Notes: generated by a model from the sequence alone, not told the origin. 64,000 nucleotides of DNA from a virus (IMGVR_UViG_3300045988_179268:160001-224000); one strand, 5' to 3'; positions 8,905-57,981 are shown, counted from the stretch's first letter. Program-made: numbers and translations.

Positions 8905-8931
8905 CTACTGGGTTGCATAGCCTTCAAAATC

Positions 8932-8942
8932 TGTGGTAGACT
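8932..8942 (+). promoter_or_regulatory. extended -10 promoter motif (TGTGGTAGACT)
   Basis: CAAAATCTGTGGTAGACTATAGG upstream of ORF 9001. Confidence 0.7.
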
Positions 8943-9000
8943 ATAGGTGTAACGAGGTGAACACCTCAAGATTCTAGTTTTCTACCGAAAGGTTCTCATC

Positions 9001-12214: not shown

Positions 12215-12661
12215 ATGGCGCAGGCACTCAATGTTATACTTTTCTGGGTAGCTTACATTGTGGCATTTATTGTTCAATGTAAGTGGTACCGAAACCTTGA
12301 GCTGATTGATGAGATTAAGTCGTCAGATGGCAGGGAATACGCGGAATGGTATAGACGCGCATTACCTTGGCTTATTGGTAGCTGGGCATTAATTGCGACA
12401 GAAATGCTTTTCTTTGCACCTTCTCCATTAGGTGCATACGATGGTGTTATTACCGCCGGTGCCACCGCAATGTCCTTCATGTGGAATATCTACACATGGG
12501 GTTCTGATATGTCGGGCGACGCATCACAGTCACCTAGTGCTCATGCTTCACGTTTCTGTAGCAATCTCATGTTTGCAAGCGTTGGGGTCATGGTCATTTT
12601 TGGTGTTATATGTGCTTTGCGACTCTGTGGTTTATTAACATTTAACATCCCTACTATGTAA
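12215..12661 (+). CDS. multi-pass membrane protein, 148 aa
   Basis: Hydrophobic helices throughout. Confidence 0.65.
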   Translation: MAQALNVILFWVAYIVAFIVQCKWYRNLELIDEIKSSDGREYAEWYRRALPWLIGSWALIATEMLFFAPSPLGAYDGVITAGATAMSFMWNIYTWGSDMSGDASQSPSAHASRFCSNLMFASVGVMVIFGVICALRLCGLLTFNIPTM

Positions 12662-12740
12662 TTCAAATAAGAGGCGGCACACATAGCTTCCACAGCAACC
12701 CCTTGTGCGTCACGAAAAGCGTTGCACAAGGGGCTGTTTT

Positions 12741-12751
12741 TGTGCTACACT
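12741..12751 (+). promoter_or_regulatory. extended -10 promoter motif (TGTGCTACACT)
   Basis: Inside the ORF-track N-terminus of 12703-13404; the true start is downstream. Confidence 0.65.
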
Positions 12752-12825
12752 ATAAATGTAGTCGGGTGAGAACCTTGCATACCGCTACAGACAAAACACT
12801 CTACACTACCGAAAGGTTTGCCACA

Positions 12826-13404
12826 ATGTTTATTGCCAAGTCTTCCCGCCGTACCGCAGTAGCCACCGCACTGCTGGTTGCCGCATCCCTCACCGCTTGC
12901 GCCACCTCACGCACCGCCCCTGCAAACGCAGAAACCCCCACCCAGACGGTTACCGTGACCACAACCCCGACCGCAAGCCCGACCCCCACGGTAACCGCAA
13001 CCCCCAAGGTGGAACAGTACGTTGTTATCAGTGCATCCATGAGCAACCGCGCCTACACTGACGCAACCCTGCACCCCTACCGCTTTCAGCCCGGCGACAC
13101 CATGCAGGAATACGATAACGGTCGAGTCATTGAGCACTACCACGGGCTTGTAACCTCCGAAGGCGAAGCTCACACCCGCTACGACGTAACTGTCACCTAC
13201 ACTCTGCGTGGCGTTGATGGTGAAATTATCACCAAGACCGTACCGCGTGACAAGATTCGAGTCGTCACCGTAGATAAGGACTACACCCTCGCATTTGGTA
13301 CTAAGGAACAGGTAGCTAATGGTGAAGTTACCTTTGAGGTTCCCCTTAATGCTGTAAGCAACAAGGATGGCAACGCCGTAAACCTGCGAGAAGTAGCGGG
13401 ATAA
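12826..13404 (+). CDS. secreted lipoprotein with T/P-rich linker, about 192 aa
   Basis: Signal peptide ending in lipobox LTAC (MFIAKSSRRTAVATALLVAASLTAC), then a TPT-rich linker. Confidence 0.75.
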   Translation: MFIAKSSRRTAVATALLVAASLTACATSRTAPANAETPTQTVTVTTTPTASPTPTVTATPKVEQYVVISASMSNRAYTDATLHPYRFQPGDTMQEYDNGRVIEHYHGLVTSEGEAHTRYDVTVTYTLRGVDGEIITKTVPRDKIRVVTVDKDYTLAFGTKEQVANGEVTFEVPLNAVSNKDGNAVNLREVAG

Positions 13405-13445
13405 GTAAACAAACTCCAACCCCCTCTGATTGAGATAACTCAGCT

Positions 13446-13548
13446 AGAGGGGGTAAATCAGCAGTTTCAGATAATGTAGAAAAACAATGAAATTAACCTG
13501 GGAATAGCGAGTATCGTTTCGCGATTTTTGTTATTCCCAGTTACGGTT
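13446..13548 (+). mobile_element. 103-bp mini-copy (MITE-like internal deletion derivative) of the TnpB element at 48094-49794
   Basis: 13446-13495 is the reverse complement of 49745-49794. 13491-13548 is the reverse complement of 48094-48151 with 1 mismatch. The junction falls in the shared TAATTT. It retains the hairpin CTGGGAATA/TATTCCCAG. Confidence 0.75.
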
Positions 13549-13673
13549 GAAGTTTATGCATGTGGATAGATGTTTGAAGCCTGCGACACAGAATAAAAGA
13601 AAATGGTTGTCACTTCTTGGTATTATTTTGCTATTATTTATAGATAATATTTTGTCGTAGGAAGGATTTTTAG

Positions 13674-14396
13674 GTGAGTGCACGTAACCCCTATCTGAAT
13701 GGTCGCATGAAGGACATTCAGGGCTTGAGTGGTGCTATCACTGAGCCACTAACCACTAGTAGTGTTATCTCCAAGACGGGCTTCTCGTTTGCGGTCTTAC
13801 TTCTTGGCGGCATTGTTGGCTGGCACACGCCCATGCTTGCTTTACCGGCGGCGCTTATTGCGTTTGTGCTTGGTCTTGTGCTTGCTTTCAAGAGTGGCGG
13901 CAACATTCCTGCCTGGGCTGTGCTGTTATACGCTGGCATTGAAGGTGTAGCTCTTGGTGCTGTGACTATGTGGGCGCAGACCCAGTATCCCGGCATCGCT
14001 GTGACGGCTGTGCTAGGAACGCTTATTGCGTTTATGACGGTGTTTGCGGCATACATGTTCGGTGCTAGGTCGAATCCGAAGCTAACGCGCATCGTCCTTA
14101 TTGGCATGGTCGCATACATTATCTATCTGTTTGCTTCTATTGTGATACAGGCGTTCACTGGTTTCAGTATCGGTAGTACCGTCGTTTTCGGTCTGCCTCT
14201 TGGCGCTATTCTTGGTGTGCTTGCCGTCGGCATGGGTGTCTACTGCCTCCTTATGGACTTTACTGAAATTGGTGAGGCTGTAGATGCTGGTGTGCCAGAT
14301 GCTTTTGGTTGGACTCTAGCGTTCGGGTTGATGCTGTCTATCATTTGGGTGTACCTAGAGATTCTGAGACTTCTAGAGTACGTCTATAAGAGGTAA
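13674..14396 (+). CDS. BI-1/YccA-family-like integral membrane protein, 240 aa
   Basis: GTG start behind GGAAGGA. N-terminal NPYL motif followed by about 7 TM helices, resembling actinobacterial Bax-inhibitor-1 family proteins (recognised by eye only). Confidence 0.6.
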   Translation: MSARNPYLNGRMKDIQGLSGAITEPLTTSSVISKTGFSFAVLLLGGIVGWHTPMLALPAALIAFVLGLVLAFKSGGNIPAWAVLLYAGIEGVALGAVTMWAQTQYPGIAVTAVLGTLIAFMTVFAAYMFGARSNPKLTRIVLIGMVAYIIYLFASIVIQAFTGFSIGSTVVFGLPLGAILGVLAVGMGVYCLLMDFTEIGEAVDAGVPDAFGWTLAFGLMLSIIWVYLEILRLLEYVYKR

Positions 14397-14435
14397 CGCA
14401 AGATAACCCTAACCCTATAGGTTCTCAGTAAGCAA

Positions 14436-14480
14436 AAAGCCGTCCCACCTACCTTTTAACACGGTAGGTGGGACGGCTTT
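14436..14480. terminator. bidirectional 18-bp hairpin terminator
   Basis: AAAGCCGTCCCACCTACC / GGTAGGTGGGACGGCTTT between convergent genes. Confidence 0.8.
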
Positions 14481-14502
14481 CATCATGCCTTACAGGTCTG
14501 TT

Positions 14503-14988
14503 TTATCCCGCGAAGCAGGCGATTACAGCACACAGCGCACCGAAGAACACAAGCATGAAGGATAACGTCAGCGCCGCTACAACAGCAGGTATCTGATGGA
14601 GCTTGCCGCCGCCAGGGAACTTAGGCATAGTACCATCAGGTTTCGGTACAGCACCTAACGAACAAACACCCATGACCTTAATCTCTTCTTCGTCATCAGA
14701 GACATTTACCGGCATATAGTACCCCAAGGCAACATATGAGAGTAGCATCCATAGCGCCATTGCCGCCACAGCAAATGAACCATTCAGTACCGCCGCTACA
14801 GCCGCAACCAGAAGCGCCGCCGCCCCAAGCTTATGAGCCACCGAATAGAGGTTATAATAATCATTACCCTCTGGCTGTTCACCCCTGCGAATCAGATAAT
14901 ACCTGGCAATAAAAGAAAACCCAATAACAATGAACACGCCTGCAAAAATTGAGGTGAGCATGGGCGTGGAAAACATGGGGGTAACCAT
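14503..14988 (-). CDS. multi-pass membrane protein, 161 aa
   Basis: SD AAGGAG; hydrophobic. Confidence 0.7.
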   Translation of the reverse strand: MVTPMFSTPMLTSIFAGVFIVIGFSFIARYYLIRRGEQPEGNDYYNLYSVAHKLGAAALLVAAVAAVLNGSFAVAAMALWMLLSYVALGYYMPVNVSDDEEEIKVMGVCSLGAVPKPDGTMPKFPGGGKLHQIPAVVAALTLSFMLVFFGALCAVIACFAG

Positions 14989-15133
14989 TAAATCTCCTTG
15001 TATGGTTTAGGAATAACTAACGTAACCATTATATCCATGCAAGGCAATAAAATCTATGCGGTCACAGTCGTCTACACATTATGCCAGGTAAACCATGTAG
15101 GCAACCTGGCATAATGTGGTAATTGTTCTATGC

Positions 15134-15517
15134 TTAGAAAGCAAATTCACCTTCAAAGAAACGCTCACCGTTTACGCAATCAACGTAAAGCTCGATACCG
15201 TGAAGCCTGTTGTAGGCAAGGGAGCCTTCCACGTACTCTGCCTGCTCAGCGGTGATAGGCTCGGTTGCGGTGAAGGTTGCGGTTCGAAGGGTTGCACCCT
15301 CTACGGGGTTCTCCCACTCGTCAAGGTCGTGGGTCTGAGTTTCGATAATGGTTACGGTCATGCGCTTCATGCCGTTACCTGCATCCTCAGCCTTGTAGGA
15401 GTCAATGTAGAACTCATCGTTATCATCCCAGATGGTAGTTTCTTCGCCGCGTGCGTCAGCCTTAGTGTCGGTGACGGCAATGAGGTCGAACTTGAGGTTG
15501 AGGGTGGTGAACCCCAT
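15134..15517 (-). CDS. hypothetical acidic protein, 127 aa
   Basis: SD AGGAAG and minus-strand promoter at 15556-15566; the + strand ORF 15116-15562 lacks signals. Confidence 0.7.
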   Translation of the reverse strand: MGFTTLNLKFDLIAVTDTKADARGEETTIWDDNDEFYIDSYKAEDAGNGMKRMTVTIIETQTHDLDEWENPVEGATLRTATFTATEPITAEQAEYVEGSLAYNRLHGIELYVDCVNGERFFEGEFAF

Positions 15518-19507: not shown

Positions 19508-19534
19508 CATTGAGAGAGAGGGGCTGGATGCACC

Positions 19535-19582
19535 AAGGGCACTGAGTGAAAGTTACAGGTTCACCCAGTGCCCTTTTCTTGT
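19535..19582 (+). terminator. rho-independent terminator
   Basis: AAGGGCACTG / CAGTGCCCTT followed by TTTCTT. Confidence 0.7.
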
Positions 19583-19702
19583 GCCTACTTGTGAATGGCT
19601 TACGAGCATCGCCGCTACAGCCACTCACGGTATAATTAACCTTTAATCCAATTTGTGTAAAATTGTAGTTTCCTGTAGCCCATTGTTGATGCATACTCAC
19701 CT

Positions 19703-19713
19703 TGTGGTACAAT
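19703..19713 (+). promoter_or_regulatory. extended -10 promoter motif (TGTGGTACAAT)
   Basis: Overlaps the ORF-track ATG at 19712, so the tnpB start is 19739. Confidence 0.65.
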
Positions 19714-19738
19714 GAGCATAAATGAAAGGAGGAACCTG

Positions 19739-21010
19739 ATGCAACTGACGGAGAGGCACCTTGTTAAGCCGAACCATGAGCTTTATGCGACCCTGGATGA
19801 CTTAACGTTCAAGGCTAAGAACCTTTACAATCATGGGCTATATCTGTACCGTCAGTCGTATTTTGAACACAAAAAGAGCCCTGATGCGCCGGTCTTAACC
19901 TGGGTGGATATTGATAAGAGCCTGCGTAAACAGGGGCACGATGATATTCGTGCTTTGCCGTCTAAAGTCGCTAATGCTGTGCTAAAAAACTTAGGCGAAA
20001 ACATCACGTCGTTTTGGAAATTAGTGCGCCTAAAAAATAGTGGTAAGCTGGCACAAAAGCCTAAGCTCCCTCATTATCTTCATAAGACTGATGGGCGTTA
20101 CGCTGTGTCTTTTAATTATCAGACTTTTGGCAATAAACGTGGCGCTAACGGGGAGCTATTCTTATGCCCAAAGGGTATTAATCTCCCCATTCCTACTAAG
20201 ATTGCTAATCCTAAGCAGGTTCGTATTGTTCCCAACCTCAATAATTTTATTATTGAGGTTATTTATGACGCGGAAGAAAGTGCGCCTAAAAGCACGTCTA
20301 AATATGCTGGTATTGATTTAGGAGTAGATAATTTTGCTACCATCACATTCTCCACCCAAAACCAACCCCTCATTATTAAGGGTCTTGAATTAAAGTCCAT
20401 CAATCAGGGCTATAACCGTCTTATCGCCAAGGCACAGTCTTTGCTTCCAGGTTCCCAGAAGACAAGTCAGTCCATCCACCGTCTTTGGTCACGTCGCTCG
20501 TGGATTCTTCGCACGAAAATCCATCAGATGACAGCGTTCCTAGCTACTCTTTTTGACGAGATGCAGATTGAAAAAGTCTTCATTGGGAAAAATACTGGCT
20601 GGAAGCAGAACCTGCCTTTCGGCAAGAAGGTTAAACAGCGATTCGCATTTCTACCTTATGAAACTTTTATTGAGCAATTGCAGTATAAATGCCAATTGCG
20701 AGGAATTACTGTCATTACCCAGGAAGAATCCTACACATCTAAGGCGAGCTTCCTAGATAATGATGATATTCCTGTTTACGGTGAGACAGAGAATCCAAAG
20801 TTTTCTGGACGCAGGATTAAGCGAGGACTTTACAAAACCAGTGATGGGCGACTAATCAATGCTGACGTTAATGGGTCATATAACATTATGCGAAAAGGAC
20901 TGATGAACAATAATCAGTCCTTACGTGTGGACAACCCATTAATTCATCCCCTTGTCGTCAAGGGAATTGGGCAGGAATCTAACGATAAGTTGGTTCAACT
21001 ATACATGTAA
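19739..21010 (+). CDS. tnpB: TnpB-like protein (IS200/IS605 OrfB family), subclass without zinc ribbon, about 423 aa
   Basis: GIDLGVDNFATI (RuvC-I Asp), IGKNTGWKQ, EESYTSKASF, NADVNGSYNIMRKG (RuvC-III Asp); SD AAAGGAGG. Confidence 0.85.
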   Translation: MQLTERHLVKPNHELYATLDDLTFKAKNLYNHGLYLYRQSYFEHKKSPDAPVLTWVDIDKSLRKQGHDDIRALPSKVANAVLKNLGENITSFWKLVRLKNSGKLAQKPKLPHYLHKTDGRYAVSFNYQTFGNKRGANGELFLCPKGINLPIPTKIANPKQVRIVPNLNNFIIEVIYDAEESAPKSTSKYAGIDLGVDNFATITFSTQNQPLIIKGLELKSINQGYNRLIAKAQSLLPGSQKTSQSIHRLWSRRSWILRTKIHQMTAFLATLFDEMQIEKVFIGKNTGWKQNLPFGKKVKQRFAFLPYETFIEQLQYKCQLRGITVITQEESYTSKASFLDNDDIPVYGETENPKFSGRRIKRGLYKTSDGRLINADVNGSYNIMRKGLMNNNQSLRVDNPLIHPLVVKGIGQESNDKLVQLYM

Positions 21011-21073
21011 CCCTAAACATTTTTTTGTGAGGGGGTAGAGGTGCTGTAGGGTGCCTATAACAGGCTCTACCTG

Positions 21074-21451
21074 TTATGAATTAAATGTAAACAGATTGTT
21101 GTTTTTGCAACGCTTCGATACACCATTTAAACCTATCTGTTCGGGTGTTGCGCCTAGTTGCTGGGCACCCGGCGTAGCTTGAATAGCTTCAACTATTTCA
21201 TCAACCTCAACGGTAGACACATTCAGCATGGGGTTATTCTTACCAATATCGTCAATAACCTCATGTACCGCTTCTGCGTTCATGTAGTCCACATTGAAAA
21301 AGGGTAAGGTGTTCCACATGTCTTTCCCTAGTGTGGGTTCACAGCTTACGGTGAGCGCTACAATGACGTCGCGCATGAACGCATCTAGCATGACGTTGCG
21401 CTGTACCTTCTCAGGGTTGCGGTTTCTGAACCACCCTAGCGGATTAAACAT
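21074..21451 (-). CDS. hypothetical protein, 125 aa
   Basis: SD GGAAGGA. Confidence 0.65.
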   Translation of the reverse strand: MFNPLGWFRNRNPEKVQRNVMLDAFMRDVIVALTVSCEPTLGKDMWNTLPFFNVDYMNAEAVHEVIDDIGKNNPMLNVSTVEVDEIVEAIQATPGAQQLGATPEQIGLNGVSKRCKNNNLFTFNS

Positions 21452-26356: not shown

Positions 26357-26427
26357 GCGGTATGATTAACCTTGACATGCTATGTCACATAACATTTCAC
26401 AGCCAACAAACCATAAGGAAATCACAC

Positions 26428-27720
26428 ATGAACCCTGCCCCCTCACCCCATAATGACCTCTCAGAGGTTCAGGAAGCCGCACAGAACGCACTAGACACAT
26501 GGAACGACCAATCAGCAACCATTGACAAGAACCCACACCCTAACAGGCTTCTAAAGGCTATTGCTACTGCTGGTGCTGGCGCATTGATTATCTCTGGCTG
26601 TAGCGTACCCGAGGCTAATACTCAGCCTACCCCTAGTGAGACACCTTTCAGTACCCAGGGTATTGAGTATGTTCGTGTGTGCCAGAAGGTTGAAGATGGC
26701 ACCCGCGCTGAGGATACTAGCTGTGAAGCTACCGAGTCAGCTTCGCCTTCCCCGTCGCCTTCTACGTCTGAGTCTGCAACCGCGAGTGCATCACCCAGTG
26801 AGTCTACTAGCGCAAGCCCCTCACCCTCACCTACTGGTAGCCCCACCAATAATGGTGGTGGTACGAATATCAACATCAATAATGGTGGCAATAGTGGCGG
26901 CGGTAGTGGTGATACCCATAGTGGTAACAGTGGGACTAATATGTTCATCTGGTATTACATCGGGTACATGATGGGTCAGAACGGCTCCGGTGGTACTACC
27001 TACATCAATAATGGCAATAATGGTAACGTGCCCGCTGTAGGTGCGCCCCTGCATGGTGGTAGCACTAGCACGCCCAGTAAGGGTACTGTCTATCAGGGTT
27101 TGCCTTCTAGTGGTGGTTCTTTTGCTGACTCGTACCGTGCCGCTAAAGCTAAGGCTGGCATGAAGGACGGTAAAGTTGCAACCATTGAGCGCTACAACTA
27201 TAAGTCGAACTCTAGTAATGGCAGTAAGTCGAATACTACTACCGGCAATAGTAGTAGCTCAAACTCTAGCAACGGCAATAGTGGTTCCACCGCTAACAAC
27301 AATAGTGGCGGCAACTCAGCGGCGGCGGCTGGTGCAGGTGCGGCGGCGGGAGCGGCGGCTGGTGCTGTAGCCGCCAACAAGAGTGGGTCTACCGGCAACA
27401 CTGGCAACAGCAACTCCAAGGACTCTAATACTTCCAAGAATGGCTCTAATGGCGATTCTAGCAACTCTAAGTCCAATGGTGGCAATACTTCCTCTAATAG
27501 TGGTAACACTAACGGAAATAACAGTAACTCCAGTAGCTCTAACAGTGGAAACAAGTCCAGCAACTCCGGCAATAGTAGCGGCGGCAACTCTAGCTCCAAG
27601 TCTGGGGGTAATAGCGGCGGTTCTTCCGGTGGGTCTAAGTCCGGTGGTTCATCGTCATCTGGCGGCTCCAAAGGTGGCTTTGGCGGCGGCTCCAAGTCTG
27701 GTGGTTCTTCCGGTGGGTAG
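26428..27720 (+). CDS. lipoprotein with extreme S/G/N-rich low-complexity region, about 430 aa
   Basis: Start moved to MNPAPS behind AAGGAA; lipobox IISGC; more than 250 aa of S/G/N/T repeats. Confidence 0.7.
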   Translation: MNPAPSPHNDLSEVQEAAQNALDTWNDQSATIDKNPHPNRLLKAIATAGAGALIISGCSVPEANTQPTPSETPFSTQGIEYVRVCQKVEDGTRAEDTSCEATESASPSPSPSTSESATASASPSESTSASPSPSPTGSPTNNGGGTNININNGGNSGGGSGDTHSGNSGTNMFIWYYIGYMMGQNGSGGTTYINNGNNGNVPAVGAPLHGGSTSTPSKGTVYQGLPSSGGSFADSYRAAKAKAGMKDGKVATIERYNYKSNSSNGSKSNTTTGNSSSSNSSNGNSGSTANNNSGGNSAAAAGAGAAAGAAAGAVAANKSGSTGNTGNSNSKDSNTSKNGSNGDSSNSKSNGGNTSSNSGNTNGNNSNSSSSNSGNKSSNSGNSSGGNSSSKSGGNSGGSSGGSKSGGSSSSGGSKGGFGGGSKSGGSSGG

Positions 27721-27945: not shown

Positions 27946-28039
27946 TCTAAAATTTAATAATTGCCACCCGGTACCGCCGTAAACGTATTGCAGGCGTGTC
28001 GCTCAATGCGCCTACTTCACTTGCGTATGGATTAAAACC

Positions 28040-28050
28040 TGTGGTAGACT
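28040..28050 (+). promoter_or_regulatory. extended -10 promoter motif (TGTGGTAGACT)
   Basis: AAAACCTGTGGTAGACTATAG upstream of ORF 28121. Confidence 0.7.
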
Positions 28051-28120
28051 ATAGATATACCCGAGGGGTTGAGCAACTTCTCAGGCGCACTCCAACCGCA
28101 TAGTGAAAGGTAAAACCTTA

Positions 28121-28492
28121 ATGGCACGCTTCGACGCAATCCTCATTGGCCCCGACTGCAACGCACCGGAAAACGCCGACAAGCCCGCAAGCGAAATCTT
28201 CAACAAAGTCTACCTTGAAAAGTATGAAGCGGCAACTGGTCACAATAACTGGAAACCCCGCGTACTTGTAAACATCATCAGTGAGAACTCCACCAACCTC
28301 TACTGGGAGGGACAGATTCAGTTCGGTTGGGAAGACCAAGACCCCTACGAGGGTTTTAAGATGGCAGGTCACGTACCCGCCGACAGTGCAGAGGCGAAGT
28401 TCCTCAAGAAGAAGAACGACTACAGCATCACCCCATCCGGCATTAACGGTGACACCGTGAGCCGCGCAATGCACTTCACCATCAACATCTAG
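28121..28492 (+). CDS. hypothetical protein, about 123 aa
   Basis: ATG (MARFDAIL) behind GAAAGG. Confidence 0.7.
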   Translation: MARFDAILIGPDCNAPENADKPASEIFNKVYLEKYEAATGHNNWKPRVLVNIISENSTNLYWEGQIQFGWEDQDPYEGFKMAGHVPADSAEAKFLKKKNDYSITPSGINGDTVSRAMHFTINI

Positions 28493-33754: not shown

Positions 33755-34120
33755 GTGGAGGCTCAGAATGTCTCTCAAGCTATTAGTATTATCCTCCCGA
33801 CAGCTCTTCTAGCGCTTTATGTTTTTGCTATTGGGTTGCCCCGTAAGAAGGCTGGGTTTTATCGTAAGCAAGCTGGTGTTTCTGGACGTGCGCGGCGCGG
33901 TAGGATTCTGAATTTTTGGGGTTTCTTTGCGTTAGGTGCAATTGTGTTGGCTAGTAATATCGTGTTTATGACCGGCTTACTTGCATCTGACGTGATTGCC
34001 GTGTATTCTGTAGCCATTGGCAGTTTCTTACTACTGGTCATGCTCGGTCACGCTATCTATGTGTGGCTGGCTGATGGTAAAGAGACTACGAGTGTAGACG
34101 ACTGTTGCCAACTTTATTGA
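33755..34120 (+). CDS. small membrane protein, 121 aa, similar architecture
   Basis: GTG start; TM - basic loop (PRKKAGFYRK) - TM. Confidence 0.55.
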   Translation: MEAQNVSQAISIILPTALLALYVFAIGLPRKKAGFYRKQAGVSGRARRGRILNFWGFFALGAIVLASNIVFMTGLLASDVIAVYSVAIGSFLLLVMLGHAIYVWLADGKETTSVDDCCQLY

Positions 34121-34193
34121 TATTGCGTTCATGGGCTAATATTGATAGCATTAGATACATTAGCCGTAGTCCAAGGATACCAGATGGGAGGGT

Positions 34194-35750
34194 GTGTTGG
34201 CGAAAAATCAGACGTACAGAGCTTTTACCGTGCGCCCGATGCATATTCTAGACCTGAACGGCGAACTAATGGACAGTGCATCTGTCATGTCCCAGCTTGC
34301 CGCTGAGGTTCGAGACATTTCAGCGTATGCCACTTACGTGGTTCGTAATGACACGAAGCTTGCGGCTGACCTGGCTCAGGTTACTGCTGTTCAGCCAGCG
34401 GTTGCGGGTCGTCGGGCGGGTGTGACCATGCCTAACTTCCTTGCGACAGGCAAGTCGGGTAGGTCGCGTAAAGAGTTTCTGGTTCAGCATAACGTAGTTA
34501 CAGCTTTCCGGTCATGGCAGGAACGCATTAAAGCCATCGAGGGCACCTCTTCCAAGTACGTTTCCCAGGGGTGGAGGCGTACTGTGGATACATCTGCACC
34601 CACGTATGGGGATGCTGATTTCATCAACTTGGGCGCTGTAGATAAGCAGTATGCGGTCATCGAGAATAACCCTGTCGCGGATGGCAAAATTGTCCTCAGG
34701 ATGGTAATTTGCGGTCAGTGGTATCGTCTGATTTTCCCCTTTGATAACTCACGGTTCCCTGAGGGTAAAGTAACTCTACCTGTCATTAAAGTTGAAAATA
34801 ATCAACCTGTTTTCATCTTCACGGTCGTTACTGATAACCCTATCATTCAGTTTTCGGGTGACTACACTATCGGTGTAGACGTTGGCATCAATGACTATGC
34901 TACTGTCGTTGTTCGCAACAGTGCTACAGGGCAGATAACCCGGAAAACCACGCTCTCTCAGCGTGTTCATTCGCTCTGGAACAGTGTTCGTGCGTCTGAA
35001 CGGCAGGTTCGCGCGCTTAATAATAAAGCAGATAAGCTTATCTATGACCGTCAGGCTCACATGTCTGCGTTTGATGAGGCTCAGTTTCATCGCGAGGCGG
35101 CTTCTCGTAAGAAACGTGAGTTGGCGATTCTTGTGGCGCAGGAAATTGCCTACCTATCTCACCGTTGGAATAACGCTGTTGTGGTGGTTGAAGACTTGGG
35201 GTGGATTCGCAATACCATGAGTAACGGCAGGTGGAATCGCGGTGCTTTCGTACAGTGGCTCACTCACTATGTCACCCAGAATGGTGGCTGGGTTGTCGCC
35301 GTGAATGCGTCTAATACATCCCAGGTATGCCATGTGTGCGGTGAAAAGGTCACCCATCCTGAGTACAAGGTTTCCATCTGCCCCGAGCACGGTGACATGG
35401 ATAGGGACGTTAATGCCGCCGCAAATATTGCCTCTAGAGCTGTCCCGAAGGTGGATAAAGCTCGTAAGACTCGCGCTAAGAACCGCAAGCTACAGCCACA
35501 GGCGGCTCTTAAGACTCCGCCTGCCCGCGAAACTCTAAAGTATCCCGGCAGGGATAGGACTAAAAATGTTCCTACTCCGAAGAGGAAGAACCGCATTTCT
35601 GAGGAGGTGAATCTCCCCTTTAGCCCCGCTAGGGTGAATATGACTACGGTACTAGCGGACTGCGACACATACGGTGCCGTGGAGACCTCTAAGGCGGCTA
35701 TCAATCAGGGTAATGTAACTCGCGAATATGGGTTATGTAGCCTAAATTGA
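34194..35750 (+). CDS. tnpB: large TnpB-like RuvC nuclease with zinc ribbon and K/R-rich C-terminal extension, 518 aa (start GTG 34194 or TTG 34197)
   Basis: IGVDVGINDYATVV (Asp), VVVVEDLGWIRN (Glu), TSQVCHVCG...CPEHG (zinc ribbon), DRDVNAAANIASRA (Asp). Confidence 0.85.
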   Translation: MLAKNQTYRAFTVRPMHILDLNGELMDSASVMSQLAAEVRDISAYATYVVRNDTKLAADLAQVTAVQPAVAGRRAGVTMPNFLATGKSGRSRKEFLVQHNVVTAFRSWQERIKAIEGTSSKYVSQGWRRTVDTSAPTYGDADFINLGAVDKQYAVIENNPVADGKIVLRMVICGQWYRLIFPFDNSRFPEGKVTLPVIKVENNQPVFIFTVVTDNPIIQFSGDYTIGVDVGINDYATVVVRNSATGQITRKTTLSQRVHSLWNSVRASERQVRALNNKADKLIYDRQAHMSAFDEAQFHREAASRKKRELAILVAQEIAYLSHRWNNAVVVVEDLGWIRNTMSNGRWNRGAFVQWLTHYVTQNGGWVVAVNASNTSQVCHVCGEKVTHPEYKVSICPEHGDMDRDVNAAANIASRAVPKVDKARKTRAKNRKLQPQAALKTPPARETLKYPGRDRTKNVPTPKRKNRISEEVNLPFSPARVNMTTVLADCDTYGAVETSKAAINQGNVTREYGLCSLN

Positions 35751-35836
35751 TACTGTAATTGTTGCTGAGCTTGACCGATTGAGGGCCGAGCAGGCGACCT
35801 GGAAACAGGATGCAAAAGATTTGGAAGGAAACTCTG

Positions 35837-39054: not shown

Positions 39055-39093
39055 AATAAAAAATCACCCAAGAGTTGCACACTCTCAAATATC

Positions 39094-39104
39094 TGTGGTA
39101 GACT
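39094..39104 (+). promoter_or_regulatory. extended -10 promoter motif (TGTGGTAGACT)
   Basis: Overlaps the ORF-track start at 39095. Confidence 0.7.
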
Positions 39105-39145
39105 ATTTATATAAGTTAAGTTTTCCCTACGGAAAGGCATCAGCC

Positions 39146-40999: not shown

Positions 41000-41707
41000 A
41001 TGACCACTCGAAAGCTATTGCCTACTAAACGCATTTATGGGTATGTTCGTGTCAGTACCGCCGGGCAGAATCCTGACCGGCAGGTGTACAACATTCACGA
41101 ATGGGTCAAGGAGAACTATGGTGAAGACGTTTACCACAGCTTAACTCTTGACGGCGCAGATTTTGTCACGGCTGATAAGGTTAGTGGCGCTACCTCAGCT
41201 AATGAGCGTGACGGGCTATCCTATATCCTCGACAATATCCAGCCGCACGATGTGCTTATCACACCTACGGTTGAGAGGTTGGGGCGTGACTCAAAGCATG
41301 TCACAGAGGTGAGGGATATGCTTGAGAAGCGTAAGGTCATCGTTATTTATAGTGACGAGTTGCCGCTTCTTAGCACCCTTGCTACGGAGTCCGGTGAGTA
41401 TCCGCCGGAAAGCTCACTTGAAGCTAACCTTACGCATAAGCTTATCTCGGGTGTAATTTTCGATATTCTGGCGCGTGTTGCCGCATACGAGTACGAAAAC
41501 AGCCGCAAAAGACAGCGCCAAGGCATCGAACGAGCTAAGGCGCGCGGCGCGTACAAGAAACCTAAGTCTCTTACTAACGACAAGCTAGAGGATGCGCGCC
41601 GCAAGATTGACATGGGTATCCCAAAGGCTGAGGTAGCACGTCAGCTTAAGATTAGCCGCGCCACTTTGCGCCGCTACCTTGATGGAATCAGCGTTCCCGA
41701 CGAATAA
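41000..41707 (+). CDS. small serine recombinase (resolvase/invertase family) with C-terminal HTH, 235 aa
   Basis: IYGYVRVSTAGQNPDRQ catalytic-Ser motif, VERLGRD, C-terminal HTH KAEVARQLKISRATLRRYL. Confidence 0.9.
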   Translation: MTTRKLLPTKRIYGYVRVSTAGQNPDRQVYNIHEWVKENYGEDVYHSLTLDGADFVTADKVSGATSANERDGLSYILDNIQPHDVLITPTVERLGRDSKHVTEVRDMLEKRKVIVIYSDELPLLSTLATESGEYPPESSLEANLTHKLISGVIFDILARVAAYEYENSRKRQRQGIERAKARGAYKKPKSLTNDKLEDARRKIDMGIPKAEVARQLKISRATLRRYLDGISVPDE

Positions 41708-47756: not shown

Positions 47757-48095
47757 ATGAGTAACACCACCTTTGAACTTCGATATGCCCGGATGCACAC
47801 CCGCAAGTACCTCAAGGGAAAAATGTCGCCCGCCTACGACAATAGGGACGTACACGATGCCTCCCTCAACACGAAGTACGACATGACCGTCACTATGAGC
47901 ATGGTTGAGCGCGACAGCTGGCGCTTACACAATGTGACTGTCCCTAGAGAGAATGTCACTGTTATTGGCGACCTTCGGAACGGGGAGCCTTACGTCATTG
48001 CTGATGATGATTTCAAGCGCTTTGAGGTGCATATTGACATGACCTTTGTTCACGGTGACATGATTAATTTTGTAGTCCCTGAGGTTAATTTCTAA
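47757..48095 (+). CDS. hypothetical protein, 112 aa
   Basis: SD AAAGGA; the stop codon overlaps the end of the TnpB element. Confidence 0.65.
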   Translation: MSNTTFELRYARMHTRKYLKGKMSPAYDNRDVHDASLNTKYDMTVTMSMVERDSWRLHNVTVPRENVTVIGDLRNGEPYVIADDDFKRFEVHIDMTFVHGDMINFVVPEVNF

Positions 48096-48153
48096 CCGTA
48101 ACTGGGAATAACGAAAATCGCGAAACGATACTCGCTATTCCCAGGTTAATTTT

Positions 48154-48327
48154 AGGGTTTTTCAACCCAAGGTCTTACGGCTAACCTACTCCACATAAGC
48201 TCACCTGGTTTCAACTAAAGAGCCACACAACCAGACTTATCACTTACGCTTCTAAGGAGAACACTACCTTAAAGGGAGATGCGCCACTGCCTTGCGTGGC
48301 TACATCTGTATAAGGCTGTATGTAAGT
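48154..48327 (-). ncRNA. candidate omega-RNA scaffold region of the TnpB element
   Basis: Non-coding stretch between the tnpB stop and the terminal hairpin, which is where omega RNAs are encoded in characterised TnpB loci. No transcript evidence. Confidence 0.3.
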
Positions 48328-49644
48328 TTATTTTACGCTATCTTTGTAGCCTTGTCCACGTCGCGCGATAACGTATGCGGCACCAACATGTGTGTTTAGT
48401 TTCATTGTTGGGCAGTAGAGTTGTTTCGCTAACCATGATGTCCACGCGGGGTTTACACGCCTCACAGATATAGCGCTCCTGTAGGCGCGTCGCTCGATTT
48501 TGTCTATAAACTGCCGATACGCAAGTGAGTGTAGCATCTCGTTGTACTTCCGCCCCTGTTTACGTAGGGTGCTTGCTTTTGCAGTCTTGAAGTTAAGGTC
48601 CTCAACGCAGATGTCCTTTCCTGTCGTTAGCGCGCGTTCCACAACCTTTGTCGCAATCAACTCTAAATCTGTGGACGTTCTATTTCCTGCCTTGAAACGA
48701 TAGGGTAGGAGTTGCGTGTCGGTTAGGTGTCCATACTGGTTCGTTTCCGCTAGGGTCACGAAGCCCTTGTTGAAGTCTAAGCCAATGGTTCCATGCGTGG
48801 AACGTGTCTGAAAGTCGCTCTTGTCCATCTGAATTTCAAAGGTGCAGTACAGGTAGAAACGTCCACGCTTTTTAATAATTTTGAAGCTCAAAGGGGTGTT
48901 GCGCTGGCGGAGCGCCTCTTTAATCCACCTTTTATGGTGGTTAAAATACACGCGACCGTAAACATACTTATCCTTAGCGTTCTTAAACCCGCCAATATCC
49001 TTGCGCAACCTCAGTTCAAACTGATTGTTCTTCGAGTTAAACCACAAATGCAAGATTTGGTTACCTGATGCTTCACTCTTCGAGCCAATAAACGACATAT
49101 GGGCGTCGCGTCTATCTATAAAAGCTTGGTAATCGGTTTGTAAGAGCCGCTTGCTACCAAAGCAGATTTCGTGCCGCCCAGATTCTATCTGGTAGCTCAA
49201 GTTTGCTGATTTTTGCTTCAGCTTATTGAGCTTACTTTTCTGAGCGACAAGCTTCCGTTTAAGGTTTCGGTACTTACCTAGACAGACAGGCAAACCTGTC
49301 TTTAGCGCGGACTTTCCAACCTCTAGGGCGTGGATATTGGCTTCTAGGACTTTGATTTTGTGGGCTAGTTGCTTTTGCTCATGAGCTTTCAGCTCTTTTA
49401 GTGCGTTGAGCTGACCTTGCGCATCGGCAATGATGGAGTTCGCTGTTCGTTTCAGAATTCCGTAAGTTTTTTGAAGATGGGTGTTGTAGCTAGATTTGTT
49501 AAAATCTGGACTGTTTCTGATAGCGTAGAAAGTTTTTCGCTGAGCCTGCGCGTAAGTCCCGCGAGCGCTCTCGAAATAATCGATAATGTCTTGGTTATTC
49601 TTTTCATGAAGCTGTGTCACAGTAGTGAACTTACGCTTAATCAC
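48328..49644 (-). CDS. tnpB: TnpB-like protein, divergent: no zinc ribbon, His where the RuvC-III Asp is expected, 438 aa
   Basis: GTG start behind AGGGGAG. IGLDFNKGFVTLAE (Asp), ICVEDLNFKT (Glu), RVNPAWTSW, NTHVGAAYVIARRG. Confidence 0.8.
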   Translation of the reverse strand: MIKRKFTTVTQLHEKNNQDIIDYFESARGTYAQAQRKTFYAIRNSPDFNKSSYNTHLQKTYGILKRTANSIIADAQGQLNALKELKAHEQKQLAHKIKVLEANIHALEVGKSALKTGLPVCLGKYRNLKRKLVAQKSKLNKLKQKSANLSYQIESGRHEICFGSKRLLQTDYQAFIDRRDAHMSFIGSKSEASGNQILHLWFNSKNNQFELRLRKDIGGFKNAKDKYVYGRVYFNHHKRWIKEALRQRNTPLSFKIIKKRGRFYLYCTFEIQMDKSDFQTRSTHGTIGLDFNKGFVTLAETNQYGHLTDTQLLPYRFKAGNRTSTDLELIATKVVERALTTGKDICVEDLNFKTAKASTLRKQGRKYNEMLHSLAYRQFIDKIERRAYRSAISVRRVNPAWTSWLAKQLYCPTMKLNTHVGAAYVIARRGQGYKDSVK

Positions 49645-49699
49645 GCTTCTCCCCTTACATCTTGTAACTTAAACCCATTAGCAAGTTCCTCAGTACTCA

Positions 49700-49711
49700 C
49701 ATAATACCATA
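49700..49711 (-). promoter_or_regulatory. extended -10-like motif (TATGGTATTATG) upstream of tnpB
   Basis: Fits TGNTANNNT on the minus strand. Confidence 0.4.
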
Positions 49712-49831
49712 CACCCAATGAATACAAAGCACGAAAAATAGGAATAATTTCATTGTTTTTCTACATTATCTGAAACTGCTGATTTACCCCCTCTCCTATT
49801 TCTACCCAAGCATTGTCGAAGCCCTTAAATA

Positions 49832-51888: not shown

Positions 51889-51908
51889 GTTGCGCAACCT
51901 TCAAAATA

Positions 51909-51919
51909 TGTGGTATAGT
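51909..51919 (+). promoter_or_regulatory. extended -10 promoter motif (TGTGGTATAGT)
   Basis: Followed by an approximately 110-nt leader before ORF 52033. Confidence 0.65.
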
Positions 51920-52032
51920 TTAGGTAGATTGAAATTTGAGGTGGCTACAGGGAGGAAACCTGAAAGCACCTACAAACCAACCACAGCTCAAAGAATACCT
52001 GTGGCGACCGCTACCCCCTAAGGAGAGACGCA

Positions 52033-56412: not shown

Positions 56413-57981
56413 ATGCGACACATGTACTTCCTCACAGGGGCACCTGGTTCTGGTAAGAGTACTTACGTCAAGAATGTAATTAAGCGACACAAACTGGGTC
56501 GCGTCATCTCCTGGGATGACTACCGCAATCGTTTCCGTGACCCTCACAATGATGAAACCTACGACATCCCCGTATATGCCGAAGAAGACGGGGTTGCTGT
56601 AGAAACCAGTGTGAAGCCACTCACCAAGGCGCAAGAAAAGATGGCAATCGACATCTCCTATATGGAAACTGAAATGCATGTACGCAACGGTGAAACCATC
56701 TTCATTGATAACACCAACACCAAGGTTCGCAATATGCGCGGCTTCCTCGACCTTGCGGAACGGTACGCCTACAAGGTATGGTTCATCGACATTCAGGGCG
56801 ACCAGACCCTAGAGCAGATTCTTGAACAGAACGCTTACCGCACCGGATACAAGCGAGTCTCTGATGAAATTGTGTCCAACATGCACGCACAGAACATTGA
56901 GCTACGTGCGAACTGGCGCAACATCTTCCAGGACAAGGATAACGTCAAGGGGTATATTGCCCCTGATGCCCTCATTGATAATCTCAAATCCTACGTGAAC
57001 TTCCAGAAGCCTGTTCGTTCACTCACTATGGGCACAGACTTTGGCAGGCAATACGAGCGAGTATGCATCTTTGGCGACGTTCAGGGAATGGGCGACACTC
57101 TAGAAGCCGCAATCCATAGCCTTTCACCTGACAAGGGGCTACACGACATGAGCACCCTTTGGATTTTCATTGGCGACCTGTTCGACCGAGGCAACAACCC
57201 CGTCAAGGTGGCAGAACTTGTACTACCTCACCTGCTTAACAACGCCCGCAACGTGAAGCTCATCAACGGCAACCACGAGTCGCAGGTACTTAACGCATAC
57301 GCAGGCGCTAACACCAATAAAGACACCCTGGACACTATTCGGGCACTTAGGGCGGCTGGGTATGGAGATGCCTGGGTCAAGACGGCTTTAACTGAGGCAC
57401 TACCCGCCGCCGAGCTTCGCCTCGACAGTGTAGATGAAGACGGTAGTATCTACAGCAAGTACCTGTACCTAACCCACGCGGGCGCACACCCGAAACTACA
57501 CGTCGATTCACTACACATCAAGGAGAATGGTTCCGGTAGGGGCAACCCCTACGGTAGCATCTACCGCTTACCTCTCAAGTATTGGGAAACCGGCTATAGT
57601 GACATTGAAGACTTCCGATACGGGTACAGCACCTACAAAGGTTGGGCTGAACCCCTCAACGACCTCTATGCTAAGGCGACCCGCCTGCACGTAGAGAACG
57701 GTGGGCACCCCAAGAGTGAACTTGTCGCAGTGTGTGGGCACCGTGGCGGATACGGCGACCCTGCACAGTACTCGAACCTTATTCCCCTGGAGTCCGAGGT
57801 AGAGTACGAGGGTGGCTCCCTTAGCGTTGCGGTATTTACCGCCCGCAAGGTGAAGCCTGTCACCTTTGGCTATCGGAAGACTTTTAAGCATGTTTGGGAT
57901 TATGAGCGACGCGAATACCCAGGCAATAGTGATGCTGAAAGGTTCTGGGTTTCCACTTCGGAGAAGCGCCAGAGCAAATAG
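56413..57981 (+). CDS. bifunctional P-loop (polynucleotide-)kinase / calcineurin-like metallophosphatase fusion (Pnkp-like), 522 aa
   Basis: Walker A FLTGAPGSGKST at the N-terminus. Metallophosphoesterase motifs IFGDVQGMGD, GDLFDRGN, NGNHE, LTHAG, CGHRG in the C-terminal half. Confidence 0.8.
   Translation: MRHMYFLTGAPGSGKSTYVKNVIKRHKLGRVISWDDYRNRFRDPHNDETYDIPVYAEEDGVAVETSVKPLTKAQEKMAIDISYMETEMHVRNGETIFIDNTNTKVRNMRGFLDLAERYAYKVWFIDIQGDQTLEQILEQNAYRTGYKRVSDEIVSNMHAQNIELRANWRNIFQDKDNVKGYIAPDALIDNLKSYVNFQKPVRSLTMGTDFGRQYERVCIFGDVQGMGDTLEAAIHSLSPDKGLHDMSTLWIFIGDLFDRGNNPVKVAELVLPHLLNNARNVKLINGNHESQVLNAYAGANTNKDTLDTIRALRAAGYGDAWVKTALTEALPAAELRLDSVDEDGSIYSKYLYLTHAGAHPKLHVDSLHIKENGSGRGNPYGSIYRLPLKYWETGYSDIEDFRYGYSTYKGWAEPLNDLYAKATRLHVENGGHPKSELVAVCGHRGGYGDPAQYSNLIPLESEVEYEGGSLSVAVFTARKVKPVTFGYRKTFKHVWDYERREYPGNSDAERFWVSTSEKRQSK

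Follow-up and report, generated by a model that had tools for sequence, protein, structure and literature searches.

We have analyzed a short repeat in a 64-kb stretch of DNA from an uncultured jumbo phage. It is genuine but ordinary, the fossil of a transposon that in its full-length form moves between related phages. This stretch, 64,000 nucleotides analysed as a whole, is referred to here as the window. The short copy (the mini-element, 93 bp) is probably an internally deleted, non-autonomous remnant of an element of 1,691 bp that is present in full elsewhere in the window, with the interior lost in place. The features on which this account is based are listed in Table 1. A slash in a sequence marks an element boundary or, in an empty site, the point of insertion.

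Table 1. Features of the mini-element, the full-length element and their target sites (positions in the window)
Feature	Coordinates	Strand	Remarks
5' arm of terminator-like hairpin upstream of mini-element	13420..13427	+	CCCCCTCT; from DNA fold and sequence
G-run target motif (flank) of mini-element	13446..13453	+	AGAGGGGG; also 3' arm of the stem-loop after ORF 12703-13404, pairing with CCCCCTCT
Mini-element	13454..13546	+	93 bp, TAAATCAG...GTTACGG; 92/93 against the concatenated ends of the full copy; boundaries from 14 insertion sites
Left-end (LE) part of mini-element	13454..13495	+	42 nt including the junction; identical to 49786->49745
Deletion junction	13490..13495	+	AAATTA; last LE-specific base G13489, first RE-specific base A13496
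Right-end (RE) part of mini-element	13496..13546	+	51 nt; 50/51 against 48146->48096; sole change T13529
Unoccupied target	28063..28068	+	GAGGGG/TTGAGC; the site that holds the element in L001 and L002
Omega (guide) RNA scaffold	48092..48316	-	RF03065 IS605-orfB-I, 195.9 bits (gathering score 94.2), model positions 1-214/214
Full-length element	48096..49786	-	1,691 bp; IS607-like, without tnpA; TnpB-like gene and omega RNA; ends from the junction table
Inner RE copy of 20-nt imperfect direct repeat	48147..48166	-	GTTGAAAAACCCTAAAATTA; inside an omega RNA hairpin
TnpB-like ORF	48328..49644	-	438 aa; RuvC-type Asp290 and Glu348; His419 at the expected third Asp
Inner LE copy of 20-nt imperfect direct repeat	49745..49764	-	GTAGAAAAACAATGAAATTA; 80% identity between the copies
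Target motif (flank) by left end of full copy	49787..49794	-	AGAGGGGG; from sequence and junction table

The mini-element and its locus

A sequence-only reading of the window had described a miniature copy of 103 bp, in which the ends of the 1.7-kb TnpB element meet at a TAATTT microhomology, roughly 1.6 kb of internal sequence having been removed. Alignment of the two copies bears out this composition. Positions 13446-13495 are identical to the reverse complement of 49745-49794 over all 50 nucleotides, and positions 13491-13548 match the reverse complement of 48094-48151 with a single mismatch (T13529 versus C48113). The missing interior measures 1,598 bp, and the breakpoint is the proposed one, the 6-nt junction sequence AAATTA reading TAATTT on the other strand. 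The extent of 103 bp is accurate for what is shared by the two copies as two joined ends, but not for the element itself: the outer 8 nt on the left (AGAGGGGG) and the 2 nt that follow GTTACGG on the right (TT) are flank, as judged from the comparison of junctions at 14 sites and from related phages. The mini-element proper agrees at 92 of its 93 positions with a full copy from which 1,598 bp have been taken out. It is present once in the window. The 21-nt left-end word AATCAGCAGTTTCAGATAATG occurs there twice and in none of 100 shuffles. The junction word of the mini-element is CAATGAAATTAACCTGGG; a full copy at this locus would show CAGCTAGAGGGGGTAAATCAG followed by the full left end.

The right-end part of the mini-element contains the last stem-loop of the omega RNA (arms at 13498-13506 and 13532-13540) and GTTACGG, the 3' half of the closing stem of that RNA. 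Together these represent approximately the last quarter of RF03065 (about positions 160-214 of 214, as taken from the alignment of the full copy). The hairpin had been placed correctly in the earlier reading, where it was called terminal; it is indeed present, but as an omega RNA stem-loop it is no evidence of an IS200/IS605 (Y1) end. Folded as RNA, the 93 nt have a free energy of -27.5 kcal/mol (z = -5.2), and no T-run follows the hairpin. The mini-element alone scores only 12.1 bits on RF03065, against a gathering score of 94.2, and is thus not a guide RNA; it also contains no ORF. Judged by its sequence, it is neither guide RNA nor gene, encoding nothing and unable to guide TnpB.

The G-run to the left of the mini-element doubles as one arm of a stem-loop behind ORF 12703-13404 (Table 1). 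An equivalent hairpin, with different arm sequences and without the mini-element, is found at the homologous intergenic place in the related phage L008; this phage has diverged at the mini-element site and does not give the exact pre-insertion sequence. The JGI contig L018 is identical to the window and carries the mini-element. The mini-element with the T variant is also present at the same locus in L020, an independent assembly (DRR784696). Contigs from a third sample (ERR589699) are interrupted within the shared end sequences, the behaviour expected of a true repeat. When positions 12500-15200 of the window are compared with L020, a mosaic patch of ~2.7 kb with 99-100% identity surrounds the mini-element, whereas identity is 75-87% on both sides. 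The occurrence of the L020 mini-element at the same locus inside a near-identical patch points to inheritance or recombination, not transposition. The gene just 3' of the mini-element (13674-14396, + strand) encodes a Bax-inhibitor-1-like membrane protein (BaxI_1, 2.5e-48).

The full-length element and its family

The region of the full copy that had been put forward as a putative omega RNA is a full-length Rfam IS605-orfB-I RNA (RF03065), which is the only Rfam match in the window. This RNA lies directly downstream of the TnpB-like ORF and runs to the element boundary, and the same RNA is found in 13 relatives. Its scaffold ends at G48096; the guide would be the flank starting at 48095.

The ends of the element and its target were determined from 14 independent insertion sites in metagenome and IMG/VR loci. 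The conserved left end begins TAAATCAG, the variants being TT, CT or CA followed by AATCAG, and the right end stops in (A/G)CGG in all copies. Before the left end there is a G at -1 in 13 of the 14 sites, at -2 in 13, at -3 in 11 and at -4 in 9; GAGGG(G) is a frequent form of the motif within the close subfamily. Six occurrences of AGAGGGGG are found on the two strands of the window, two of which are occupied. In L028-31 the element splits a perfect terminator, CAAGGGG/element/CATATGCCCCTTGTTTTTTT, with no duplicated bases, and this fixes both boundaries. Target-site duplications were likewise absent when the occupied site of L001 was compared with the empty site of the window, and from the flanks of both window copies. 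No terminal inverted repeats link the termini; left and right ends are instead joined by the direct repeats D4 (16/20) and D9. The two nucleotides after the G-run were considered as a crossover dinucleotide and rejected, as the left and right junctions carry different dinucleotides. A second left-end variant was seen in L005/L012, L010, L014, L015 and L022, in which an inverted duplication at positions of about 22-50 replaces GTAGAAAAACAATGAAATT; it forms a long hairpin (GAATACAAAGCACGAAA...TTTCGTGCTTTGTATTC) and is without the left-end repeat used in the deletion in the window.

By these sequence characters the element is IS607-like and not IS605-like, an assignment based on the GG target, the CGG right end, the lack of duplication and of inverted repeats, and a tnpA-bearing relative. 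IS607 elements insert at GG without duplication and have directly repeated end motifs but no inverted repeats (PMC6188088). A target-adjacent motif (TAM) of TGGG and an omega RNA scaffold ending in UCGG have been reported for IS607 (PMC10690162), and TAMs of AGGAG or GAGGG for IS607 TnpBs (PMC11061315). The element resembles members of the IS607 family, such as IS607, IS1535 and the Clostridium botulinum IStron, in its insertion at GG or a G-run and in both of the absences noted above. It also shares with this family the CGG in which its right end and scaffold end, the short direct repeats in both ends, and a member (in L043, described below) with a helix-turn-helix (HTH)-first serine TnpA directly upstream of tnpB. 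Its GAGGG(G), which resembles TGGG, AGGAG and GAGGG, would be the TAM. The element differs from these systems in that neither the window copy nor ~20 close relatives have a tnpA, and in its residence in a jumbo phage, not a bacterial chromosome. It also differs in having a guide RNA of the Rfam IS605-orfB-I type, not RAGATH-18, and a protein without zinc ribbon and with His at the third catalytic position.

The sequence-only reading had seen no TnpA in the window, and we agree: among the 76 window ORFs there is neither a Y1_Tnp domain nor an IS607-type TnpA, and no TnpA of any kind adjoins the element in the window or at ~20 close loci. The window copy and these relatives are thus non-autonomous. 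The serine TnpA that characterizes IS607 elements, in which an N-terminal HTH precedes the C-terminal catalytic domain, is missing from the window copy, which is at best a non-autonomous IS607 member. A profile search of IMG/VR gave 41 relatives; two HUH-motif ORFs near these have no Pfam match. The 284-kb phage contig L043 has an ORF with a MerR HTH (residues 30-65) followed by a resolvase domain (residues 93-190; YARVSS...DKLAQVGFHYLE), which is separated by 42 nt from the downstream gene of a TnpB homologue (61% identity) accompanied by the same RNA. The architecture of this ORF, as read from its sequence, is that of an IS607 TnpA. A serine recombinase encoded in the window (41000-41707, + strand, 235 aa) was examined as a candidate transposase and rejected, as its domain order is that of a resolvase or invertase and not of an IS607 TnpA: the resolvase domain comes first (6.7e-23) and HTH_7 last, and its best PHROG is 'DNA invertase'.

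The 438-aa protein matches TIGR01766 with 41.9 bits (cut-off 32); it scores 44 bits on guided_TnpB, under the cut-off of 100, and its Pfam match is only faint. It has no zinc ribbon or CxxC pair. On sequence criteria it is a divergent TnpB relative and not a canonical member, which would combine a zinc ribbon with a D-E-D triad. Across 58 members with 24-60% identity, Asp290, Glu348 and His419 do not vary, which argues for a conserved unusual active site and not a decayed one. A profile search of 1.84 billion cluster representatives puts the size of the clade at 1,836 clusters (50% identity) with E <= 0.001, or 181 with E <= 1e-30. All inspected members of the clade lack the zinc ribbon; their C-termini contain NPAYTS, a short linker, then (K)LN-x-H-x-x-AA-x-VIARRG, and the clade is paired with the orphan Rfam motif IS605-orfB-I. 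The protein has lost the zinc ribbon and replaced the third catalytic Asp, as have TldR and the Cas12m-type relatives of TnpB. It differs from these in that D290, E348 and H419 are invariant throughout the clade and in that its gene is carried by a mobile element whose ends are intact and whose omega RNA is canonical. The invariant residues and the mobile setting speak for an unusual but functional active site and against a domesticated repressor.

Searches of PDB sequences with the protein and two profiles gave nothing beyond a weak match, by the family profile, to a Cas12m (E = 0.002), and the AlphaFold model of the protein is poor (pLDDT 55). No close relative was found in GTDB genomes with the 438-aa protein; the family profile retrieved nothing there beyond a binned 2.7-kb contig and a gene of Erysipelotrichaceae with 32% identity. 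Among 50,697 GenBank phages, megablast and blastn searches with the element and the RNA gave no match, and tblastn only 28%-identical TnpBs of Thermus phages.

Mobility of the full-length element and origin of the remnant

The near identity of the two copies had been taken as a sign of recent mobility or copying. This holds for the full element, but not for the mini-element, whose junction is known from this locus only. L001 and L002, from two other samples, encode the identical 438-aa protein at a different place, between homologues of window ORFs 26362-27720 and 28103-28492. There the element and the window copy agree at 99.35% identity, against only 83-89% for the phage DNA on either side. 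The corresponding site in the window is empty and reads ...CCCGAGGGG/TTGAGCAAC... (Table 1). Furthermore, in L041 and L042 there is no element between the 112-aa and 393-aa genes, the neighbouring 393-aa gene being 91-94% identical. The different site in L001 and L002 and the absence from L041 and L042 indicate that the full element has moved recently among related phages. Such movement would require a serine TnpA acting in trans, such as one from a relative in another jumbo-phage contig. After excision, the donor joints would be AGAGGGGG/TTAGAAATT and AGAGGGGG/TTGAAGTTT, and the circle junction GTTACGG/TAAATCAG. It had been recognized that a larger segmental duplication, containing both copies, would dispense with transposition; this was checked, and the flanks of the two copies are unrelated beyond the 8-nt target motif.

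Some insertions depart from the simple pattern. At 9850-9865 of L001 and L002 the left junction is aberrant, GATGTCG/AATCAG in place of the expected ...GAGGGG/TAAATCAG; this copy lacks the G-run motif and the initial bases of its left end and might be immobilised. It lies just downstream, in L001, of a promoter-like motif, TTGC-N(~16)-TGTGGTAGACTATAG, in the same orientation; this motif precedes genes at 8913-8951, 28021-28059, 39075-39113, 51890-51928 and others. Where the window has 48096-49794, L041 (3844-3960) and L042 hold 58 nt with a terminator hairpin (GGAGGGGGGTATCTAGA...TCTAGATACCCCCCTTTTTTTT). The full insertion coincides with the loss or replacement of this hairpin, so that L041 and L042 do not provide a clean empty site and some insertions are not clean.

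As to the mini-element, a copy of the element evidently entered this locus behind ORF 12703-13404, directly after the G-rich 3' arm of the stem-loop there, and 1,598 bp would then, most likely, have been lost in place. The cause may have been slippage or microhomology-mediated recombination between the imperfect 20-nt direct repeats, GTAGAAAAACAATGAAATTA (49764-49745) and GTTGAAAAACCCTAAAATTA (48166-48147), which are identical at 16 of 20 positions. The mini-element follows the left-end version up to G13489, continues through AAATTA and then has the right-end sequence, which places the crossover of the deletion in AAATTA. Template switching during the copying of the element into the site could give the same product. 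The remnant retains 42 nt from the left end and 51 nt from the right, without the nuclease gene and ~3/4 of the guide RNA scaffold. It now persists passively, passed among related phages by descent or homologous recombination. Its junction is absent from IMG/VR, and all seven metagenome contigs with the left-end word continue as a full-type left end (four with a complete element, three cut by the contig end). The restriction of the mini-element to one locus makes deletion in place the likelier origin; as no full-length copy turned up at this locus in the relatives, this is an event that we infer rather than demonstrate.

A second account, which we hold to be unlikely though it has a real chance of being right, is that the mini-element is a true MITE: the deletion would have taken place elsewhere, and a serine TnpA acting in trans would have brought the 93-bp element to the G-run at 13453/13454. 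Its termini are both precise, and its target, AGAGGGGG/.../TT, is canonical, as with the full copies. An IS607-type TnpA exists in a related phage contig. The family also includes tnpB-less derivatives: positions 2583-2863 of L004 combine the left end with an omega RNA that is complete (189 bits). The mini-element also resembles the MITE-like derivatives of IS200/IS605/IS607 elements, palindrome-associated transposable elements (PATEs) among them, in being short and non-coding, in having both ends of its parent (93 bp = 42 + 51 nt) and in needing a transposase in trans if it moves. Such derivatives occur in several copies at different sites, whereas the mini-element shows no sign of amplification: its junction is found once per genome, at a single locus, with one copy in the window, none in IMG/VR and one in L020 at the same locus within the 99-100% identical patch. 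Moreover, the L004 derivative keeps the whole omega RNA, and a laboratory mini-IS lacking tnpA and tnpB retained 581 + 221 bp (PMC10690162), while only 42 bp of the left end are left here. The TnpA of IS1535 depends on motifs between LE 20 and 59, and its end complex forms robustly only with about 84 bp (PMC6188088); if the present family behaves as this other member does, the mini-element would be a poor substrate for TnpA. The L004 derivative (IMG/VR 3300045988_173726, 264 kb) is located 28 nt upstream of a full copy, on a contig with at least six copies of the family.

The elements of this D-E-H clade may also be pictured as RNA-guided homing elements among co-infecting jumbo phages, with the mini-element as an 'immune scar' stage, a proposal to which we would give a rather small chance. 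By parting the G-run from the flank that matches the guide, the mini-element would make the site uncuttable at a cost of 93 bp, not 1.7 kb, and the 2.7-kb patch in L020 would be a co-conversion tract. As with the remnants of homing-endonuclease cycles, a selfish nuclease element has lost its nuclease gene and still interrupts its target, and it is polymorphic among phages. However, no co-conversion gradient surrounds the full copies that share a site, in three pairs. The presence of the element at different sites in close relatives further indicates transposition and not only homing, which for this clade is only predicted.

That the mini-element is kept because it is useful seems to us slightly less probable still. 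By parting the G-run motif from the downstream flank, it would shield its site from the TnpB of an element that occupies this very site in a co-infecting phage, or its hairpin would aid termination after ORF 12703-13404. The hairpin is very stable and the family often inserts at terminator stems, but no T-run follows it. The resemblance of the L020 patch (99-100% identity against 75-87% outside) to a co-conversion tract is offset by the frequency of mosaic patches in phages and by three other same-site pairs without raised identity beside the element. No phage with a full copy at the site is known, and the nuclease activity of the TnpB clade is only predicted.

It is very improbable that the element belongs to IS200/IS605, mobilized by a Y1 TnpA through peel-and-paste, the mini-element then being a PATE in which the hairpin recognised by TnpA is retained. 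The Rfam family name and the annotation of one source do say IS605 OrfB, a strong subterminal hairpin lies 6 nt from the right end, and insertion occurs 3' of a short motif without duplication. However, IS200/IS605 elements need subterminal hairpins at both ends, and the left end of the mini-element and of the full window copy has no comparable hairpin; the GG at the target and the CGG at the right end are those of IS607; and the searches for Y1_Tnp in the window and of the HUH-motif ORFs near relatives were negative (see above), the only TnpA adjoining a family member being the HTH-first serine recombinase. Finally, an assembly artefact or a segment of a larger duplication can be dismissed: repeats may mislead assemblers, and the ERR589699 contigs do break at these sequences, but a k-mer assembler could not join a 6-nt overlap, the mini-element is identical in the independent sample and assembly of L020 and in L018, and the flanks of the two copies are unrelated. 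Loss of the interior in place thus remains our preferred origin of the mini-element.

Phage context and other elements

Contigs that encode the identical 438-aa protein reach 365,699 bp, and those with homologues measure ~350-390 kb. The record of one relative is labelled as human oral metagenome. No cultured GenBank phage among the 50,697 searched resembles this one. A ROOL RNA (187 bits) is found by a family member on a 199-kb phage contig, and tRNA arrays by others (L045 208-839; L016 1878-2685; L068).

Besides the remnant, the 64-kb window harbours three different TnpB-type elements, none of which is present at the matching sites of close relatives. The second TnpB (19712-21010, + strand, 432 aa) is canonical, with matches to OrfB_IS605 (4.6e-18) and to the Cas12f1-like TNB domain (4.6e-10). 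The segment at about 19511-21134 has no counterpart in L001 and L002 and thus represents another insertion polymorphism. The third TnpB-like gene (34194-35750, + strand, 518 aa; TNB domain, 8.5e-14) lies in a 1,661-bp insertion (34097-35757) that L001 and L002 likewise lack and for which L001 has the exact empty site GAGTGTA/ATTGTTGC; the right end of this element also ends in TGTA. This is, in sequence terms, an IS605-like pattern, unlike that of the GG-targeting element. Among other window genes, ORF 56413-57981 (+ strand) combines an AAA_33 kinase domain with a metallophosphatase domain, and RNA ligase and polynucleotide kinase families are found among the PHROG matches of window ORFs that were not specified. 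If we may guess, these families and ORF 56413-57981 would suggest an RNA-repair set.

The mini-element is useful as a marker, as it defines precisely where an uncharacterised element ends and which motif it targets, but the element family and its phage setting are of more interest than the mini-element itself. If the protein is an active nuclease, it would be a compact guide-RNA enzyme with a G-rich adjacent motif, and the elements would offer a case of IS607-type elements that spread among phages without a transposase of their own.
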